DNA of 64,000 nt from Minisyncoccota bacterium (GTDB taxonomy: Bacteria; Patescibacteriota; Minisyncoccia; Phycocordibacterales; PALSA-1337): positions 12,783-76,782 of the forward strand of contig JAGOQK010000001.1 in the NCBI GenBank assembly GCA_017991475.1, read 5' to 3'. Both the position numbers and the translations under genes were made by a program. How positions within the stretch are numbered: the stretch's first letter is position 1; each line of letters opens with the position of its first letter. Of the stretch, positions 36,835 through 44,638 are shown in pieces. The notes under the pieces were generated by a model. That model searched no databases, was not told the DNA's origin, and saw only the letters and a list, made by a program, of their open reading frames with translations.

Positions 36835-39138
36835 TTATAATCTCTTACCTTTTATGCGCAATGAATTGCCGACGACCGAGACGCTCGACATCGCCATGGC
36901 GAATCCTGCGAAAACTGGAGACAGTAACCATCCGAAAATTGGATAGAACACTCCAGCTGCAAGCGGGATACCCACGATATTGTAGATGAACGCCCAGAAA
37001 AGATTCTGCTTGATGCCACGCATAGTAACCTTGGAGAGCCTGATAGCCTTGACCAGCTTGGAGATATCACCACCGAGAAGCGTGATACCTGCTGACTCGA
37101 TTGCAACATCCGTACCAGTTCCCATGGCAATACCAACATCTGCCTGTGCGAGCGCAGGGGCATCATTGACACCATCGCCCGCCATCGCGACGATGCGACC
37201 CTGCGCCTGCAATTCCTTGATCTTCGCAAGCTTATCCTGCGGAAGCACATGCGCCACGACGTCATCGATACCAACGAGCGAAGCCATGTGTTTCGCAGCT
37301 TTCTCGTCATCACCAGTAAGCATAACAACCTTGATGCCGAGCTTGTGAAGATCGGCTACAGCCTGTTTCGATTCAGGTTTTATTTCATCAGCAACCATAG
37401 CAAATCCGAGAACTTTTTCTTTTGTCGCCAATATAACCGGCGTCTTCCCTTGTGCAGTAAATCGTGTGATGCTCGACTCATCAAATGAGAGACTGAGATC
37501 CTTCATCAACTTTGCGTTTCCGATAAAATATTCAACCCCGTCAATCGAGCCCGTGAGTCCTTTGCCTTGAATACTTTCGAAGCCTGAAACATCATTCAAG
37601 CGAATGCCTTTCTGATCGGCGTACTCAACGATGGCATGCGCAATCGGATGCTCGGACTTCTTCTCAAAAGAAGCAAGAATGGACACGAATTCTGACTCGC
37701 CAAATCCAGGTCGAGCGCCACCTACAATCTCAATGTCCACGAGTGTCGGCTTGCCGATAGTGATCGTGCCTGTCTTGTCGACAATGACTGTATCTACTTT
37801 GTGCAGTTTTTCAAGAGTCGCAGCATCCTTTATGAGAATACCTTCCTTCGCACCCTTCCCAACACCGACGATGATAGCTGTCGGCGTCGCGAGACCGAGA
37901 GCACACGGACACGCGATGACCAGAATACCGACGAATGATACAAGCCCGAACGAAAGAGCCTGAGAAAATCCGAGTGGACCCGTGCCAAGCGCCAACCATG
38001 CACCGAACGTAACAAACGCGGTCACGAGAACAATGGGCACGAAAATACCCGAAATCTTATCCGCGAGGGCTTGTATCGGAGCCTTACTACCTTGTGCATC
38101 CTCCACCATCTTGATGATCTGCGCGAGGAGCGTCTCGGAACCGACTTTGGTAGCCTTGAATGTGAACGAGCCACTGGTGTTCAAGGTTCCTGACACGACA
38201 GTACCGCCAATTTTCTTTTGCACAGGCATAGGTTCGCCCGTGACCATTGATTCATCGACGAATGATGATCCTTCGGTTATCGTTCCATCCACGGGAATTT
38301 TCATACCCGGCTTCACAATAATGAGGTCACCATGCCTCACATCATTCACAGAGATTTCAATCTCTTTTCCATCACGAATAACAAGAGCTGTCTTTGCCTG
38401 CATATTGAGAAGCTTCTCGATGGCATCGCCAGTCTTGATCTTAGATCGCGCTTCAAGATATTTGCCGAGTGCAATAAAGGCAATGACAACGATGGTGACA
38501 TCGTAATAGGTGTAATCGACGTTCACGTAGGGTCTCAAAAATTCCTCGAACGCGGTGACTGCGAAACTGTATAGAAATGCCGCGACTGTGCCGATACCGA
38601 TGAGTGTATCCATGTTGGCCTTGCCGTACCGTACGAACCTGTAGAATCCGAGAAGATATGGTTTACCCACGACGAACAACATGTACGTCGCCATGATAGG
38701 TAACAGATGGTGGAGGAATTCTTCGATGGTCGGAGGCATCTCTGCAATACCTCCATACTCGATCAACATGTCCCATACCATAATCAATATACTTATGATC
38801 GCAAGTGGAATAGCGGAAGCAACCTTGGCTCCCATATCTGCGACTTCCGCGAGCTTGTCTTTCTTGGACTGACCGACACCGAAATGCGCTGCGTGCTCAT
38901 TTGACGAGATGCCCATATCCTCAGCGGATAAGGAGTATCCGAGCTTCTCAATTTTCCCCGAAAGCTCCTGTACACTCATCTTCGATGCATCAAATGCAAT
39001 CTTTGCCTTCTCTGTTCCGTAATTCACCTCGACAGAGTGCACACCATCAACTTTCTTGAAGGTCTTCTCGATGATTGCTGCACATGACGCACAGTGCATT
39101 CCTTTCACGGCATATGTTTTTGTAGCGGGAGTATTCAT
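36835..39138 (-). CDS. copA: copper-translocating P1B-type ATPase
   Basis: It has an N-terminal HMA GMHCASC, plus [16 protein letters not shown] and the TGDN region. Confidence 0.95.
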
Positions 39139-39153
39139 GGAATATATGAACGA

Positions 39154-39429
39154 TTATTTACGCTTGAGTCGATACACTTTGAGGATCTCATCGATCGCCG
39201 TACCCTGCTCACCCTTCTTCATCTGATGGACGACACAAGTGCCGAGATGACTCTCCATAAGTGCATCCTCAACTCCTGAGAGTGCCTGTTTGACGGCAGA
39301 TGTCTGAGTGATGACATCGATGCAGTATTCTTCCTTGGCGAGCATATCCTGGAGTCCACGAACCTGTCCCTCTATGATCTTGAGGCGACGAATAAGTCGC
39401 TGATTTGATTTGGATGATGGTGTTTTCAT
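39154..39429 (-). CDS. csoR: CsoR-family metal-sensing transcriptional repressor
   Basis: 91 aa with RLKIIEGQVRGL and the Cys...His...Cys metal ligands. Confidence 0.9.
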   Translation of the reverse strand: MKTPSSKSNQRLIRRLKIIEGQVRGLQDMLAKEEYCIDVITQTSAVKQALSGVEDALMESHLGTCVVHQMKKGEQGTAIDEILKVYRLKRK

Positions 39430-39559: not shown

Positions 39560-40003
39560 ATGGAAATAAGCACTACGGAGTTCTCCGTGGCGCGAGCCAT
39601 GGAACTCTATGACCTCCTCAAGGAGAAACAAAACGAATACCTCATTCGCATCAAAGGATTGGAATTTTCATGGGACAATTCATGGTATGAGATGGATCTT
39701 TTGGCTCGATATGATGAAGATCCAGACTTCAAGCTCCTGTATTACAAATTCGTCATAGTATCAGTCCTCGTCATGGCATGCGAGAAATACCCTCAGAAGG
39801 TCAGAGAAAAAGACCCTCATGTCGAAGACGTCGTCAGTGCGCGATATGTCGGCGTTGACCTCTCTCACGCGCTCTGTCGCAGTCTCAATGTCAAAGTGTT
39901 TAACAATGCCTGCGACGTCATCTCAGACTATCTATCAGGCAAGCTAGTCCTCCAATCGAGCGGACCCATTCCGACCGAACCACAGAACTTAGCGACCATA
40001 TAG
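39560..40003 (+). CDS. hypothetical protein
   Basis: 147 aa. An intrinsic terminator follows at about 40006-40040 (cagagcatc-ccctttcgg-agatgctctg + T6). Confidence 0.5.
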   Translation: MEISTTEFSVARAMELYDLLKEKQNEYLIRIKGLEFSWDNSWYEMDLLARYDEDPDFKLLYYKFVIVSVLVMACEKYPQKVREKDPHVEDVVSARYVGVDLSHALCRSLNVKVFNNACDVISDYLSGKLVLQSSGPIPTEPQNLATI

Positions 40004-40070
40004 CACCAGAGCATCCCCTTTCGGAGATGCTCTGCTTTTTTGTATGTGATTCTAACCAACCAAGTAACAA

Positions 40071-40457
40071 CTACAATGCTGAGTAGACCCACGGTATCGC
40101 GATAGCCATGGTCATGAGAGCTGCTGCAGCCAGAGCCATGTTCTTCTCGAAGTTGATTCTCTCACCCATGCGCATCATAGGATCCTGAATCTTCCAGAAA
40201 TCATGCATCTTGAGTGACACTGGGACGAGGAATGCAATGATCGCCACTGCTCCCCAGACTGTCCAGACACCAAGAATCATCGACAAGCCACCGAAGGCGA
40301 GCAACATGCCTGAACCGACAATCGCGAGCTTAGGAGACTTAACTCCTTTGGACTGCGCGTACCCGACAAGGTGCGCTGACTTGAAGATGTGATTGTATGC
40401 ATTCTTGAGGAAGTATCCTCCGAAAATGATGCGACCGATAAGGAATGCTATTTCCAT
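40071..40457 (-). CDS. DoxX family membrane protein
   Basis: It has IIFGGYFLKNAYNHI and four TM helices. The start is taken at the internal MEIAFLIG to avoid overlap with the RT gene. Confidence 0.7.
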   Translation of the reverse strand: MEIAFLIGRIIFGGYFLKNAYNHIFKSAHLVGYAQSKGVKSPKLAIVGSGMLLAFGGLSMILGVWTVWGAVAIIAFLVPVSLKMHDFWKIQDPMMRMGERINFEKNMALAAAALMTMAIAIPWVYSAL

Positions 40458-40527
40458 AAATGTGTTCGTATATATGTTAAAACGACCCTTGGTAATGTGG
40501 GGTGAGTATAGCAAAAAATGCTGAATA

Positions 40528-41574
40528 TTACATACGATTGATTTTTTGTTCGATCTTGTACCCATCACAATGCGTCAACATGCCTAAATAGGAATTCAGC
40601 GTATGGTCAAATGTCTCTTGTGTTATCAAACCTCTATTCATTCTTGCCTTTGTGAACAGTATCTTTTTCATAATTCTCTTTTTAGTCTTGGTACGCAAAA
40701 CTGTCTGTTGTGGCAAGGTAACATACCCAAGAAAATCAATGCCTTGAGTACATTTTCGTATAACAATTTTATGGGGGTGCAGGAAAAGGTGCAATTTCTC
40801 CTGAAGAAACGAATCAACATCTCGAATATACTTTTCAAGTACACTAGTATCGGGGTCGAGAATGATAAAGTCATCACAGTACCGGAGATAGTATTTTGCT
40901 TTAAGGGTGTGCTTCACAAATTGATCCAACTCATTGAGGTACACATTAGCAAAAAGCTGACTCGTCACATTACCCAGAGGCAAACCGGCACCCTGCTTTA
41001 CTTCGAAGCTACCAAGAATCATCTGTATGATTGATAAAATATCTGGATCAGTAATTTTTCTTTTGATTATCGCAAAGAGAATTTCATGATCAATATTGTC
41101 AAAAAATTTCCTCACATCACACTTCAAGGCAAGTACAGGTTGAGTGTAATTATGACTCATTTTTCTGATATATCTTTGGAGCATTTTCACCCCTCGATGT
41201 GCACCTTTCCCATTCCTGCATGAATACGAATCAGGTATAAATCCTTTATCGAAAATCTGATACAATACCCGAAACAAAGCTTGATTGAACACACGATCAC
41301 GAATGCTTGCCTTGTGGATATGCCGTAATTTTGGATCACGGACATAAAATGCTACATAAGTATCAGGCTTCCAAACCTTTTGCTTCAATTCGATATGAAG
41401 CTTGAATATAGTATCTTCGAGGTTGAATGCAAACTCTTGTACTTCTATCTTACTCGTCTTCCCCCGCTTAAACTCTTTCCATGCCAAAAATAAGTTTTCT
41501 AACGAAATAACATGCTCAAACAAGCCTCCTTGAAAAGCCCCCCCCCACGCAATTTTGATGTACCTATTGTTCAT
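40528..41574 (-). CDS. DGR reverse transcriptase
   Basis: 348 aa. It has RT motifs including YCDDFIIL (YxDD) and GLPLGNVTSQLFANVYLNELD. The [IL]GxxxSQ motif replaces the QGxxxSP of group II introns and is the DGR-RT hallmark. It has no maturase or endonuclease domain. Confidence 0.85.
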   Translation of the reverse strand: MNNRYIKIAWGGAFQGGLFEHVISLENLFLAWKEFKRGKTSKIEVQEFAFNLEDTIFKLHIELKQKVWKPDTYVAFYVRDPKLRHIHKASIRDRVFNQALFRVLYQIFDKGFIPDSYSCRNGKGAHRGVKMLQRYIRKMSHNYTQPVLALKCDVRKFFDNIDHEILFAIIKRKITDPDILSIIQMILGSFEVKQGAGLPLGNVTSQLFANVYLNELDQFVKHTLKAKYYLRYCDDFIILDPDTSVLEKYIRDVDSFLQEKLHLFLHPHKIVIRKCTQGIDFLGYVTLPQQTVLRTKTKKRIMKKILFTKARMNRGLITQETFDHTLNSYLGMLTHCDGYKIEQKINRM

Positions 41575-41892
41575 AAGATCACTCGGTTTTATAAAGATGT
41601 ATACATACTAGGGAATAAAATATCGAAACGAGACAAATTCGGAATCTATCTCAAAGTTGAAAATGTCAGCATCGATCTCATCACAATATCCATTGACGCT
41701 GCCCTCAACCAAAAAGATAGAAAGAAGCCTTTACTCTACCAACTTCGCATCAGAATCGAAACCTTAAAACAACTCATCAGAGCAATGAATGAACTCAAAA
41801 TCATTGAGGATAGACCCTACATAGCTCTCGAGGCACAGCTTCAGGAAATCTCAAAGATGGCTACAGGATGGATCAAATACTTGGAAACATAA
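41512..41892 (+). CDS. avd: Avd-like accessory variability determinant (four-helix-bundle, PF05635-like)
   Basis: ...KFGIYLKVENVSIDLITISIDAAL...YIALEAQLQEISKMATGWIKYL matches the four-helix-bundle/23S-IVS protein pattern. It is encoded on the strand opposite to RT and TR, and its 5' end overlaps the RT start. The true start is uncertain (ATG 41512 or in-frame TTG 41530). Confidence 0.65.
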   Translation: MLKQASLKSPPPRNFDVPIVHKITRFYKDVYILGNKISKRDKFGIYLKVENVSIDLITISIDAALNQKDRKKPLLYQLRIRIETLKQLIRAMNELKIIEDRPYIALEAQLQEISKMATGWIKYLET

Positions 41893-41928
41893 AAGAGAAT
41901 CTCACGACCCCCTTTTACGACGATACTT

Positions 41929-42041
41929 CTGCACGAGCACGGAGGTTGGGATTGGAGTTCGACGAGTTGTTCCAGTTGACATAGACCTTGCGGTTGTCGG
42001 TATTCCAGTTCACGTTCGGGACGTTACCGTCCGAATAGCGC
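41929..42041 (-). repeat. DGR template repeat (TR)
   Basis: It is homologous to 42368-42480. In minus sense it is rich in AAC/AAT codons (RYSDGNVPNVNWNTDNRKVYVNWNNSSNSNPNLRARAEVSS). Weaker homology extends about 12 nt further 3'. Confidence 0.85.
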
Positions 42042-42291
42042 TCCTCTCATGTTCTATCCACATCCATCCGTATCACCAGAGATCTTCTGTAAAATCTCCT
42101 GAGTTATCTTGCGATCGCAAGCAGTGTACTGAGTTAGCGCCTCATGAGAGCACATACTCACCAGATCTGGATAGGCAGTTTCGTTTTTGAAAAACTGTGG
42201 CAAACCGATATCCACCTTTCGCCATTCAGCGAACTTGCAGACCAGTTGTAGTAGCCGAGAATATTATAGCAATAATCATCCATATAGAAAA

Positions 42292-42320
42292 TTCGGCACC
42301 CAGTCAAGCTGGATGCCGAA
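42292..42320 (-). other. hairpin immediately downstream of VR (candidate DGR homing/cruciform element)
   Basis: On the minus strand, TTCGGCATCC-AGCTTGACT-GGGTGCCGAA forms a 10-bp stem with one mismatch. It lies about 45 nt 3' of the VR end. Confidence 0.5.
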
Positions 42321-42356
42321 GTGAAGCGCAAGGGTACAAGATACAAGAACCAAGCA

Positions 42357-43037
42357 TTACGAAACCACTGCACGAGCACGGAGGAGGGGACCGGAGTCCG
42401 ACGAGTTGTCCCAGTCGACACAGACCTTGCGGTAGTCGGTACTCCAGCTCACGTGCGGGACGCTACCGTCCGAACAGCGCGAACCACTACAGAGCGTGAC
42501 ATTCTCGATATCGAGATGATTGCCTGTTGCCAGGAAATATCCGAGTTCGAGGAGGAGGCGCTCGAGAAGCGTGATGCCCTTGATCTTTTCCTCAGCCAAC
42601 ATGTCTGCCGACTTCTCGGCGAGCCCAGGATCCGCTTCGATGGTTTTCAGGAATTTCACCCGATAGTCACCATCCTTCACAGGATCACGATCGTTGGTCG
42701 GAACATCCTTGTCGAGGTCGTCCTTGTACAGATAGACATCGACACCGATATCTCGCAGGGCTTTCACTACCTTGTTCGGAGTGGCACCCTTGAAGACAGG
42801 CACGACCCAGTAGTTCGAATCATTCACATCTCCATTGTTGATGTTAACTTTCACATCAAGGAGCTCATACACTTTTTTCCAGTCAATCACGACATTTTCG
42901 AGACCAAAAGGATTGCGATGATCGAGGAATGCTTGGAGGTGAATCCCATTGAGACTTCCATCGCCGATTTGGCGGAATAAGTCACTAAGTTGGGGAGCCG
43001 ATACATTCGACCCCGCTACGACTATTTTAGTAGCCAT
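42357..43037 (-). CDS. DGR target (variable) protein
   Basis: 226 aa with the C-terminal 40 aa encoded by VR. It has no signal peptide. Confidence 0.75.
   Translation of the reverse strand: MATKIVVAGSNVSAPQLSDLFRQIGDGSLNGIHLQAFLDHRNPFGLENVVIDWKKVYELLDVKVNINNGDVNDSNYWVVPVFKGATPNKVVKALRDIGVDVYLYKDDLDKDVPTNDRDPVKDGDYRVKFLKTIEADPGLAEKSADMLAEEKIKGITLLERLLLELGYFLATGNHLDIENVTLCSGSRCSDGSVPHVSWSTDYRKVCVDWDNSSDSGPLLRARAVVS
42368..42480 (-). repeat. DGR variable repeat (VR) at the 3' end of the target gene
   Basis: It encodes ...RCSDGSVPHVSWSTDYRKVCVDWDNSSDSGPLLRARAVVS. It has 14 substitutions relative to TR, every one at a TR adenine. Confidence 0.85.
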
Positions 43038-43184
43038 GTTTGTTTACTTTCTTGTTCTATTTTGTTGTCGAATAGCACTGAATAAGGTGTATTACCCGAT
43101 TCTCTACTCTACTATCATTATATCATCTTTCGATACTAAAGTCAATACCACTGTAAGATGGCTCTGTTGAGGGTTCAATTTGAA

Positions 43185-43280
43185 GAAACCCTAAACACTA
43201 AGTCCTAAATTCTAAACAAATTCAAAACCCTAAACTCATATACTGGGTTTAGGGTTTAGAACTTAGAGTTTAGGGTTTAC
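43185..43280. repeat. imperfect inverted repeat built from telomere-like CCCTAAA/TTTAGGG heptamers
   Basis: gaaaccctaaacactaagtcctaaa...aaaccctaaactc opposes gggtttagggtttagaacttagagtttagggtttac. The right arm ends at the helicase stop codon. Confidence 0.7.
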
Positions 43281-44638
43281 TAGACGAACGTCAGTGCCTT
43301 ACCCTTCTTGCCCGCTCGTCCAGTACGACCGATGCGGTGAACATAGTCCTCATAAGTAGCAGGAATATCGAAGTTGATAACATGGGTGACACCAGAGATA
43401 TCGAGACCGCGTGCGGCAACATCGGTGGCCACGAGTACTTTGACCTGATGCTCCTTGAAAGCGCGAAGTGCGCGCATGCGCTGTCCCTGACTCTTGTTGC
43501 CATGAATAGCTTCTGCGCTGATCTTGCGCTTCACGAGATCCTCGGAGAGACGCTGAACACCGTGCTTGGTCTTACCGAAAATAATAACCTTGGTAAATCC
43601 AGGCTGGGTGAGGTGTTCAATGAGAACATCGAGCTTATTCTTGCCCGCTGGGACGCGGATGATATCCTGATCAACAGATGCGGCGGTATCAGCAGTCTTG
43701 ACTGAGATCCTGACTGGATCAATAAGGAACTGTCCGATGAGTGCTTCGATCTCTGGCGACATAGTTGCTGAGAAGAAGAGTGTCTGACGAACCTTGGGCA
43801 TACCAGCCATCATGAACTTGATGTCGGTGATAAATCCCATGTCGAGCATGCGATCAGCCTCATCGAGGACCACAGTAGCATACTCTTCGAGACGGATACG
43901 GCCACGATCGATAAGATCGCGGAGACGACCTGGGGTACCGATGACGAACTGATTCTGGCGTGAGAGACCCTTGAGCTGAGGCACAATACTTGCACCTCCG
44001 ACACAACACACAGACCAGATCGGAAGATTCTTGGTGAAGCCTTTGAGCTCCTCTTCGATTTGCTGAGCAAGCTCACGAGTAGGAACAACCACGAGGATTT
44101 TCTCCTTTGGATTCTTGAGAATCTTGTTGATGAGCGGAATGAGGAACGCTGCGGTCTTGCCAGTACCTGTATTGGCGATACCGACGAGATCGACGTTGCG
44201 GAGGACATGCGGAATAGCCTTGTCTTGAATAGGAGTCGGCGTGACATATCCCTTAGTAACAATATTGGCTTTGAGACGAGCCTCGATGTGGAAGTCGACG
44301 AAGGCATGATCAGGCACGAAGTTGTCGACGGTCTCTGTGATGACCGCCTTGTTCACGAACTTACTGACATCGATATATTTCGAGAATCGATCGCCCCTGT
44401 TGCCGCCGCGGTTGCCACCACGATGACCACCTCCACGATTGCCGCCGAAACGGCTTGGTCCGCGAGAACCTCCTCCGAAACGGCTCGAACCGCCTCGTGA
44501 AGCACCGTTCCCAAAACCTCTGTTGGTTGCCGGGTGCGATGAATGGCCTCCTGGACGTGATCCGTGAGATGAAGGCTTACTATGACTAAATGATCGGCTC
44601 GGGCCGTGGCCCGCGCCTCCTGAAGGTTTGTTATACAT
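43280..44638 (-). CDS. DEAD-box ATP-dependent RNA helicase with an N-terminal Gly/Arg-rich (RGG) extension
   Basis: It has a Q motif, Walker A (GTGKTAAF), DEAD, SAT and HRIGRTGRAG. The first 90 aa or so are RGG/GNRGG repeats. Confidence 0.95.
   Translation of the reverse strand: MYNKPSGGAGHGPSRSFSHSKPSSHGSRPGGHSSHPATNRGFGNGASRGGSSRFGGGSRGPSRFGGNRGGGHRGGNRGGNRGDRFSKYIDVSKFVNKAVITETVDNFVPDHAFVDFHIEARLKANIVTKGYVTPTPIQDKAIPHVLRNVDLVGIANTGTGKTAAFLIPLINKILKNPKEKILVVVPTRELAQQIEEELKGFTKNLPIWSVCCVGGASIVPQLKGLSRQNQFVIGTPGRLRDLIDRGRIRLEEYATVVLDEADRMLDMGFITDIKFMMAGMPKVRQTLFFSATMSPEIEALIGQFLIDPVRISVKTADTAASVDQDIIRVPAGKNKLDVLIEHLTQPGFTKVIIFGKTKHGVQRLSEDLVKRKISAEAIHGNKSQGQRMRALRAFKEHQVKVLVATDVAARGLDISGVTHVINFDIPATYEDYVHRIGRTGRAGKKGKALTFV

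Follow-up and report, generated by a model that had tools for sequence, protein, structure and literature searches.

A probable diversity-generating retroelement of the type common in CPR bacteria, with a conserved structured leader 5' of its template repeat

The locus described here is a complete diversity-generating retroelement (DGR) of the type common in CPR bacteria and, judged from its sequence, is probably active. We are confident that it is a chromosomal, CPR-lineage DGR with architecture B3 (target, template repeat, inverted avd, and reverse transcriptase), and we propose a mechanism for it below. DGRs are known in abundance from CPR bacteria; the locus is a further clear-cut case and adds little to them beyond a putative C-type-lectin-like fold for a family of more than 400 target proteins. 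[quoted passage not shown]

Repeat pair, reverse transcriptase and avd

The window (the whole 64-kb stretch of DNA that was analysed) contains the following repeats and genes.

41920 to 42041 (core, 41929 to 42041), minus strand: template repeat (TR), with 33 adenines in 122 nt
42359 to 42480 (core, 42368 to 42480), minus strand: variable repeat (VR), the last ~40 target codons
42357 to 43037, minus strand: target (variable protein) gene, an intact ORF of 226 aa
40528 to 41574, minus strand: DGR reverse transcriptase (RT), 348 aa, with motifs LGNVTSQLFANVY and YCDD
41512 to 41892, plus strand: avd (accessory variability determinant), 126 aa
41538 to 41546, no strand assigned: C9/G9 homopolymer within the avd/RT head-to-head overlap

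Ungapped comparison of the core repeats, at an offset of 439 nt, revealed 14 mismatches and no more. All 14 were a T on the plus strand of the upstream copy (the TR), i.e., an A in the minus, or coding, sense, and the VR carried C, A or G on the plus strand at these sites (G, T or C in template sense). The register continued to 41920/42359, giving a repeat of 122 nt with three additional mismatches, each at a TR adenine; over the extended repeat, 17/17 mismatches were at TR adenines and 0/89 non-A positions differed. By chance, mismatches would be confined to adenines with a probability of 5.3e-10 (core) or 4.5e-12 (extended repeat). The first-pass annotation had described a 113-bp pair with 14 differences, all at TR adenines and with T, G or C in the VR in template sense, and the comparison bore this out; the count of mismatch classes that it had suggested was adenine-only over the whole 122 nt. 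It had also described the TR, in template sense, as dominated by AAC/AAT codons; 15 of the 17 changed adenines occupied codon positions 1 and 2 in the target frame, mainly in AAC/AAT codons. The lack of any difference at the 89 non-adenine positions argues for recent homing. No further TR-like copies were found in the window. Among related loci, 384 of 400 mismatches (96%) in 23 nonidentical TR/VR pairs were at TR adenines.

The VR differed from the TR at 16 or 17 positions, every one at a TR adenine. The 3'-most difference, at 41924, is probably not a product of mutagenesis, because the VR has a fixed T at this position irrespective of the TR base: T was present in every related locus with an alignable VR counterpart, including four loci with C in the TR. 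The TR ends with GC-rich CCTCCGTGCTCGTGCAG followed by an invariant GAAGT (41929 to 41925), and a GC-rich 17-mer is common to TR and VR.

The RT matched Pfam RVT_1 at 6.3e-22. Its best solved relative, at 6.9e-40, was 8ub7, which we take to be the Bordetella phage bRT (the database table says just "Reverse transcriptase"), and group II and retron-type RTs followed at 1e-20 to 2e-21. When the RT was aligned to 8ub7, LGNVTSQLFANVY fell opposite IGSLTSQLFANVY of bRT and YCDD opposite YMDD, consistent with the earlier assignment of a DGR-type RT from its LGNVTSQ motif. The alternative that this is an RT of another class (group II intron, retron or defence RT) next to an ordinary duplication has a negligible probability and is effectively refuted already. 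The top-scoring NCBIfam RT match was group_II_RT_mat (152 bits), with weaker Drt and retron matches, but all of these were far under their curated cutoffs; moreover, the DGR RT structure was by far the best PDB match (6.9e-40 versus about 1e-20), Rfam gave no group II intron or retron RNA, and the adenine-only pattern, with a chance of about 5e-10, recurred in the 23 related pairs.

The Avd-like gene reported in the first-pass annotation scored 49.2 bits against Pfam PF22296 (bAvd), over the cutoff of 40; the score against NCBIfam DivGenRetAVD (NF033474), 53.7 bits, was under its curated cutoff of 80. avd lies on the strand opposite target, TR and RT, facing the TR RNA and pointing away from the RT gene. 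The coding starts of avd and RT overlap head-to-head by 45 to 63 nt, an opposite-strand overlap that had been missed previously. At least 11 related loci had an inverted avd in this place too, and G-tracts of 6 to 12 nt were found at the avd/RT overlap in five of eight distinct loci. Taken together, adenine-only TR/VR differences, a DGR-type RT, Avd and hypervariable target codons (see below) support the DGR interpretation.

Target protein and its family

43117 to 43145, minus strand: promoter-like site of the target gene, TTGACT-17-TATAAT, from a consensus scan

The promoter-like site matched the consensus at 11 of 12 positions, had a TG before the -10 hexamer, and was located about 80 nt upstream of the ATG; from this pattern match, it is a predicted promoter of the target gene. 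A complete DGR had been placed at 40528 to 43037, and its parts were all intact, but the element extends beyond that interval, to the promoter-like site.

The N-terminal ~75 aa of the target are helical and the C-terminal ~150 aa putatively C-type-lectin-like. The target had no match in Pfam, NCBIfam or PDB (phmmer), a profile of 60 sequences of its family had none in PDB, and Foldseek against PDB gave no significant match. The first-pass annotation had noted the lack of a recognisable CLec/FGE motif and had raised the possibility of an uncharacterised type of fold. Mtd (1yu0), TvpA (2y3c), TaqVP (5vf4) and the FGE/PvdO/EgtB-C-terminal fold family showed only 6 to 11% identity to the target. 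In contrast with C-type-lectin-fold DGR variable proteins, the target has no trimerisation domain or signal peptide and has a different, helical N-terminal part of ~75 aa. No signal peptide, as previously stated, and no transmembrane (TM) segment was recognisable. The family, which has more than 400 members, is without an annotated domain. In 60 members, codons whose first or second base is a TR adenine had a column entropy of 2.62 bits, against 0.73 bits for the remaining codons (p = 1.4e-6). Hypervariability in the family was confined to the codons that have TR adenines, which lends indirect support to mutagenic retrohoming.

Leader, stem-loop and VR flank

The noncoding parts of the locus contain several conserved elements.

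42263 to 42271, minus strand: extended -10 box TGCTATAAT, 6 to 8 nt ahead of the leader start
42054 to 42256, minus strand: conserved structured leader of the TR RNA
42256 to 42254 with 42201 to 42199 and 42247 to 42237 with 42215 to 42203, minus strand: leader helix P1
42174 to 42163 with 42065 to 42054, minus strand: leader long-range helix P2
41888 to 41919, minus strand: post-TR stem-loop, 14 bp with a GUGA tetraloop
42321 to 42364, minus strand: VR-specific conserved 3' flank, with conserved noncoding columns
42292 to 42320, minus strand: GC-rich hairpin of 12 bp followed by TTTTCTATAT

P2 encloses hairpins at 42121 to 42108 and at 42099 to 42091 with 42086 to 42078, and the leader has invariant unpaired blocks (GAAACUGC, AUAAC.CAG and CGGUG). 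P1 was absent from two related loci that have no avd. RNAalifold predicted 43 pairs in the leader, 27 of them compensatory; in the pairing control, 95% were paired versus 37 to 53% when slid, and 0 of 500 shuffles did as well. In a comparison of 19 sequences, 37 pairs were 97.4% canonical, with 24 compensatory pairs versus 5 to 9. The G-U pairs indicate that the leader strand is TR-sense. The MFE z-score of the whole putative TR RNA, folded as a single sequence, was only -1.37, so stability alone is no evidence, and the support for the RNA is comparative. By nhmmer, the leader motif had its sole match in the window at 42288 to 42027 on the minus strand. No Rfam family matched the leader in a cmscan of 40000 to 43400 at E values up to 1, and the TR-flanking RNA matched none of the known DGR/RT-associated Rfam motifs (RT-1 to RT-19). 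The cmscan returned just sub-threshold miRNA-like matches, on an unrelated hairpin at 43186 to 43278. A small protein encoded in the VR-TR spacer was considered and rejected, as no ORF was kept in frame or strand in 14 loci and the base pairs covary.

A TAnAAT-like hexamer was present at the position of the -10 box in most of 19 nonredundant loci, many with a TG extension, as judged by eye from alignments rather than counted. The box was missing from the consensus scan list because it has no -35 box. It is a putative promoter of the TR RNA, and we infer the transcription start from it.

The post-TR stem-loop has an A-tract on its 5' side and a U-tract on its 3' side, starts 1 nt past the end of TR-VR homology and overlaps the avd stop codon (41890 to 41892). 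When each sequence was folded separately, hairpins of 13 to 21 pairs with differing stem sequences were found in 17/17 loci. An "Avd-binding stem-loop just downstream of TR" has been predicted in 207 of 278 DGRs (bioRxiv 10.1101/2023.10.23.563531), and the position of the stem-loop here agrees with that prediction. Across loci, homology stopped at or just after the last codons of the target, with the foot of the hairpin 1 to 8 nt beyond and often adjacent. This coincidence is suggestive, but where the stop codon lies is a confounder. A conserved helix joining the TR 3' tail to the leader, as an analogue of TR:Sp or avd:Sp in BPP-1, was also looked for. The candidate was limited to 5 nt (AYUUU:GAAGU) and was rejected because it shows no informative covariation and because GAAGU is itself copied into the VR.

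The VR 3' flank reads GTTTCG-TAA, then a pyrimidine-rich block with the consensus CTTGnAnCTTGTnTCTTTTACCCTTG; the TR side has no such flank, and the T at index 5 is fixed in the VR whatever base the TR carries. By analogy with IMH/IMH* of BPP-1 (PMC5758913), this flank is a candidate IMH-like determinant of the target site. The 12-bp hairpin lies 37 nt past the target stop codon, and hairpins of other sequence occupy the same place in related loci. Putatively, it terminates the target gene, corresponds to the hairpin downstream of the IMH in other DGRs, or does both.

A search with nothing but the leader motif yielded 12 contigs; all of them held a leader and a TR with adenine-biased TR/VR repeats, and 11 of the 12 had the inverted avd. 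We consider it unlikely that the leader lies outside the retrohoming machinery, as a regulatory leader or riboswitch for TR transcription, as the target mRNA 3' UTR or as an unrelated sRNA. Its role was assigned from position and co-occurrence alone, the search for pairing to the 3' end of the TR was negative, and a multi-stem junction with invariant unpaired blocks would also suit a ligand-binding aptamer. However, the leader always directly preceded a same-strand TR, was confined to loci with DGR parts and was never beside RT-less target paralogues, and each of the 12 contigs carried a TR cassette. Moreover, a terminator-like hairpin and the -10 box separate the target gene from the leader, whereas no terminator lies between leader and TR.

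That the element is a decayed or silent relic, whose TR/VR differences record past homing, is improbable. Decay does occur among its relatives: in one locus, the 5' half of the leader is fused to a C-terminal fragment of RT, and another has a truncated leader without TR or RT. In addition, the C9 tract is slippage prone and lies inside both the RT and avd reading frames. Nevertheless, the target, RT and Avd ORFs are all intact with catalytic motifs present, there is no drift at the 89 non-adenine positions, and the RNA elements are all intact and agree with the family consensus. A working DGR remains our preferred reading.

Proposed mechanism and comparison with known systems

We propose that the TR would be transcribed as a separate RNA of ~375 nt, from the extended -10 promoter (about 42271) to the hairpin/U-tract (about 41885), consisting of the structured leader of ~200 nt, the 122-nt TR and the terminal stem-loop. 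RT and Avd would bind this RNA, and cDNA synthesis would begin at the base of the terminal stem-loop or close to it. The TR would be copied faithfully save at adenines and the cDNA would replace the VR, with the 3' limit of replacement set by the VR-specific IMH-like flank plus hairpin; as an outcome, about 16 positions on the putative ligand-binding face of the target would be diversified. We infer the promoter, transcript ends and priming site from sequence conservation.

More tentatively, and with less than even confidence, we suggest that in this CPR DGR lineage the template forms a small RNA gene in its own right, with a large protein-binding/priming scaffold 5' of the TR, cDNA start at the stem-loop foot and a retron-like topology, and that the leader represents an uncatalogued RNA family specific to these DGRs. 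If true, this 5'-scaffold topology would explain how the element could work although avd lies inverted between TR and RT. A leader that binds RT/Avd as a scaffold would offer a testable second model of DGR RNP assembly and priming. It would furthermore supply engineering with a compact set of RNA, RT and Avd, and its sequence could serve to find DGRs of this kind independently of TR/VR detection. CPR/Patescibacteria DGRs were reportedly first surveyed by Paul et al. in 2017. We did not find the leader described in the literature that was covered. Neither PMC5758913 nor PMC8144416 mentions the leader, the -10 box, the post-VR block or the avd/RT overlap.

In architecture B3, as defined for CPR DGRs by Wu et al. 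(2018; PMC5758913), the core order is TR-(avd)-RT and avd is reversed, and CPR/Patescibacteria DGRs constitute "DGR clade 2" (Roux et al. 2021, PMC8144416). The order recorded here, TR at 42041 to 41920 (minus), avd at 41512 to 41892 (plus) and RT at 41574 to 40528 (minus), agrees with B3, and the gene architecture was conserved in related loci. The locus shares host lineage, gene order, reverse avd and chromosomal location with B3/clade 2 DGRs, and it shares with CPR DGRs a small target without a recognisable domain, TM segment or signal peptide, a C-terminal VR and an AAC-rich TR. There is no essential difference from CPR B3 DGRs, of which it is one more member.

The prototype, BPP-1 (mtd-avd-TR-brt), has in common with the locus adenine-specific TR-to-VR transfer, Avd, a homologous RT (6.9e-40) with (I/L)GxxxSQ and YxDD motifs, and a stem-loop just 3' of the TR. 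In both, the TR/VR 3' end is GC-rich and precedes a difference, here a candidate IMH-like one, with a hairpin farther downstream. The VR of its target is C-type-lectin-like, as is putatively the case here. Unlike the locus, BPP-1 is a phage element whose genes share one strand and in which avd precedes the TR. The RNA scaffold essential to BPP-1 is Sp (140 nt; Rfam RT-10 motif), situated on the 3' side of the TR in the interval up to brt. At the locus, by contrast, the TR is followed by just about 40 nt that contain a single hairpin, the TR-RT interval is antisense avd, and the large conserved structure is 5' of the TR. The likeness to retron ncRNA (msr-msd) is one of topology only: a structured, nontemplating RNA domain 5' of the template and a stem at the template 3' end. 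Similarity was lacking in sequence as well as in Rfam, the RT belongs to the DGR rather than the retron type, no a1/a2-like pairing of 5' and 3' ends was found, and the product at the locus would be homed into a gene.

Many DGRs are phage-borne (PMC8144416), and the GC content of RT and avd (0.38 to 0.39) is lower than that of the whole window (0.476). That the DGR belongs to a prophage and, like that of BPP-1, serves to vary the receptor-binding protein of a phage is nonetheless very improbable. The ORFs that flank the cassette look like housekeeping-type genes, for a DoxX-family protein (Pfam) and, from translations judged by eye, a P-type ATPase and a DEAD-box helicase, and the leader motif had no matches in 2.9 million viral contigs. 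Furthermore, the CPR DGR clade is reported to be cellular (PMC8144416), and the target is a small protein without a match to a Pfam or NCBIfam family. The VR scaffold with all TR adenines masked had no matches in metagenome contigs, indicating that the source organism is absent from those contigs. A Candidatus Pacebacteria MAG has an identical protein on record.

Adenine-specific transfer from template to variable repeat

Ungapped comparison of a direct near-repeat (41929-42041 versus 42368-42480; offset, 439 nt) revealed exactly 14 mismatches, as counted in the first-pass annotation, and each was a T on the plus strand of the upstream copy, corresponding to an A when read on the minus (coding) strand. 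The register extended to 41920/42359, adding three further mismatches, all at adenines; in the extended repeat, 17/17 mismatches were at adenines of the template repeat (TR) and 0/89 nonadenine positions differed. Given 30 adenines in the 113-nt core and 33 in the 122-nt extended repeat, the probability that all mismatches would fall on adenines by chance is 5e-10 or 5e-12, respectively. The downstream copy, the variable repeat (VR), makes up the final ~40 codons of a 226-amino-acid (aa) minus-strand open reading frame (ORF) (42357-43037), where the earlier reading had placed it. Translated in the frame of this target gene, the TR reads RYSDGNVPNVNWNTDNRKVYVNWNNSSNSNPNLRARAEVS, and 15/17 of the changed adenines occupy codon position 1 or 2, chiefly in AAC/AAT codons. 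No further TR-like copy was found in the 64-kb window. Both repeats are GC rich (VR, 0.64; TR, 0.53; window, 0.476). In a comparison set of 38 genomic loci from relatives plus 12 from metagenomes, 23 nonidentical TR/VR pairs placed 384 of 400 mismatches (96%) at TR adenines. Sequence information is thus transferred from TR to VR specifically at adenines.

The reverse transcriptase (RT) ORF (40528-41574, minus strand) contains an RVT_1 domain. Its closest solved relative by a wide margin was 8ub7 (6.9e-40, compared to ~1e-20 for group II/retron-type RTs), which is labeled only "Reverse transcriptase" in the search table and which we take to be the diversity-generating retroelement (DGR) RT of the Bordetella phage. 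In the alignment, LGNVTSQLFANVY lay opposite IGSLTSQLFANVY and YCDD lay opposite YMDD, bearing out the proposed motif typical of DGRs. The Avd-like gene also held up: the 126-aa ORF at 41512-41892 scored above the Pfam bAvd cutoff, although it fell below that of NCBIfam DGR-Avd. Unlike the target, TR, and RT, it is encoded on the plus strand, an orientation absent from the first-pass annotation. Both RT and Avd are intact, and the DGR is complete, as had been claimed. The GC content of RT and avd (40528-41892) is 0.38 to 0.39, compared to 0.476 for the whole window.

The order target(+), TR(+), avd(−), RT(+) recurred in at least 11 genomic loci and in 11/12 metagenomic loci; the remaining metagenomic contig had a TR and the leader described below but no avd or RT match. 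Wu et al. 2018 (PMC5758913) defined this architecture, TR-(avd)-RT with a reverse-strand avd, as B3 and found it in 90% of Candidate Phyla Radiation (CPR) DGRs and almost nowhere else, and Roux et al. (PMC8144416) predicted that the VR-overlapping domains of such targets are new C-type-lectin variants. The agreement with both studies makes the cassette, with its inverted avd and anonymous target, typical of a well-described kind, and its intrinsic surprise is therefore low. Its added value lies in the RNA that carries the TR.

A conserved, structured RNA domain next to the TR

VR-to-TR spacing is conserved in the family (381 to 453 nt), and the interval contains strongly conserved nucleotide blocks but no conserved ORF. 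The following elements, all in TR sense, were found between VR and avd.

~42364-42321: VR-specific flank, GTTTCG-TAA and then a pyrimidine-rich block
42320-42292: 12-bp GC hairpin with a T-run
42271-42263: putative extended −10 box, TGCTATAAT
42256-42054: leader, ~200 nt
42041-41920: TR, terminating in an invariant GAAGT
41919-41888: post-TR stem-loop, 14 bp, GUGA tetraloop, A- and U-tracts at its sides

At the sixth position past the GC-rich segment that TR and VR share, all loci with an alignable VR counterpart have a fixed T in the VR, even four loci having C in the TR. This T marks a candidate boundary of the IMH/IMH* type (the sequences at the VR and TR 3′ ends in the Bordetella phage prototype, BPP-1); by the same token, position 41924, the 3′-most of the 17 differences, is probably fixed rather than a product of mutagenesis. 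Relatives have hairpins of differing sequence at the place of the GC hairpin, and, judged by eye from alignments, most of 19 nonredundant loci have a TAnAAT-like hexamer at the place of the −10 box. The post-TR stem-loop begins 1 nt beyond the end of TR-VR homology and overlaps the avd stop codon; hairpins of 13 to 21 pairs with differing stem sequences were present there in 17/17 nonredundant loci. From this arrangement, the TR seems to form a transcription unit of its own, ~375 nt long, that ends before it would be read antisense into avd.

RNAalifold predicted 43 pairs in the leader, 27 of them with compensatory changes, compared to 5 to 9 in controls with slid partners; 95% of cells were paired, compared to 37 to 53% in those controls, and 0/500 shuffles reached the observed values. 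In a 19-sequence set, 37 pairs were 97.4% canonical and 24 were compensatory (versus 5 to 9). Conserved G-U pairs fix the RNA strand as TR sense. An nhmmer profile of the leader had a single match in the window and matched all retrieved loci in which a TR was detected, including five outside the profile-building set, while loci with only RT-less target paralogues gave no match. A strict motif from the most conserved leader hairpin had no hits in 2.9 million viral contigs and hit 12 metagenome contigs, all of which (12/12) had the leader, a TR, and adenine-biased TR/VR repeats and 11/12 of which had an inverted avd. A conserved structured RNA is thus joined to the TR.

A permissive scan of 40000-43400 matched no family in Rfam 15, a library that contains the RT-associated motifs of Weinberg et al. 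2017, including RT-10, the BPP-1 TR-RT spacer (PMC5737381). The survey of 278 DGRs by Handa et al. (bioRxiv 10.1101/2023.10.23.563531) reached no farther than 40 nt 5′ and 100 nt 3′ of the TR; it reported stem-loops just 3′ of the TR in 207/278, CPR elements included, and proposed that these bind Avd. A large 5′ domain on a DGR template RNA was not described in any source that we consulted, but our literature coverage was incomplete and priority is uncertain. If confirmed and undescribed, the leader and self-contained TR unit would provide a second model for DGR ribonucleoproteins, with a different topology.

Possible roles of the leader and variation among related loci

By analogy with BPP-1, an RT-Avd complex would bind the TR RNA, and cDNA synthesis would begin beside a duplex at the TR 3′ end, most obviously at the foot of the terminal stem-loop. 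During synthesis, adenines would be miscopied, and the cDNA would replace the VR as far as the IMH-like boundary. The leader could act as a scaffold, a processivity or stop element, or a regulator. No leader-tail duplex was detectable. In two related loci, L015 (5890-6029) and L019 (5596-5768), RT comes straight after the TR with no avd, and the 5′ helix P1 is missing from the leader: the match is limited to the 3′ part of the profile, beginning at position 72 or 83 of 249. These two loci hint that P1 may be linked to Avd.

The avd and RT genes overlap head to head by 45 to 63 nt (within 41512-41574 in the window), and a C9/G9 homopolymer (41538-41546) lies inside the overlap in both frames (RT, ...WGGGA...; Avd, ...SPPPR...). 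G-tracts of 6 to 12 nt occur at the overlap in 5/8 distinct loci (G12 in L010, G8 in L023, G7 in L018, and G6 in L041). Strand slippage in such a run could switch both DGR proteins on and off.

Some relatives (L007/L048, L042, and L039/L046) have two target genes, one upstream of the leader and the other downstream of RT, with each VR matching one single TR and all differences adenine biased. Two cassettes look decayed: in L016 (3355-3716), only the 5′ half of a leader is present, joined to a C-terminal fragment of RT, and in L001 (5748-5947), a truncated leader follows a target gene and TR, avd, and RT were not found.

The target family and neighboring genes

An identical copy of the target protein has been recorded in a "Candidatus Pacebacteria" (CPR) metagenome-assembled genome (MAG), and those of its 427 homologues that are named are nearly all from CPR/Patescibacteria MAGs. 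In a 60-member family alignment, variability was concentrated at residues that correspond to TR codons with an adenine in the first or second position: mean column entropy was 2.62 bits for these residues and 0.73 bits for all others (P = 1.4e-6). Residue spectra at variable positions (D, S, G, Y, N, R, H, and C) were those expected from AAC mutagenesis. The suggestion of an uncharacterized fold was not supported; a confident AlphaFold2 model derived from the family alignment (pLDDT, 88.3; pTM, 0.85) points to a C-type-lectin-like fold, an assignment that is likely rather than proven because a whole-chain Foldseek search gave no significant match and sequence and profile searches gave none. 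One homologue, 75% identical to the target (P0008), has a C terminus that resembles the translation of an unmutated TR (...NVNWNTDNRKVYVNWYNPSNANSNLRARAEVSF...) and extends beyond the usual stop, most likely owing to a VR-to-TR assembly jump in its contig.

Just upstream of the DoxX gene neighboring the cassette, translations inspected by eye resemble a small CsoR-type metal-sensing repressor (39154-39429, minus strand) and a copper-transporting P-type ATPase (36835-39138, minus strand), with no evident relation to the DGR. On the other side, a hairpin at 43186-43278, with 32-nt arms that are 88% complementary and built of TTTAGGG-like repeats, sits between the putative target promoter and the stop codon of a DEAD-box helicase gene, directly after the latter. 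It had only subthreshold, microRNA-like matches in Rfam and is probably a long terminator hairpin. The helicase itself (43280-44638, minus strand) has a G/R/S-rich N-terminal extension of ~85 aa, an RGG-like region of low complexity that is unusual in bacterial helicases.
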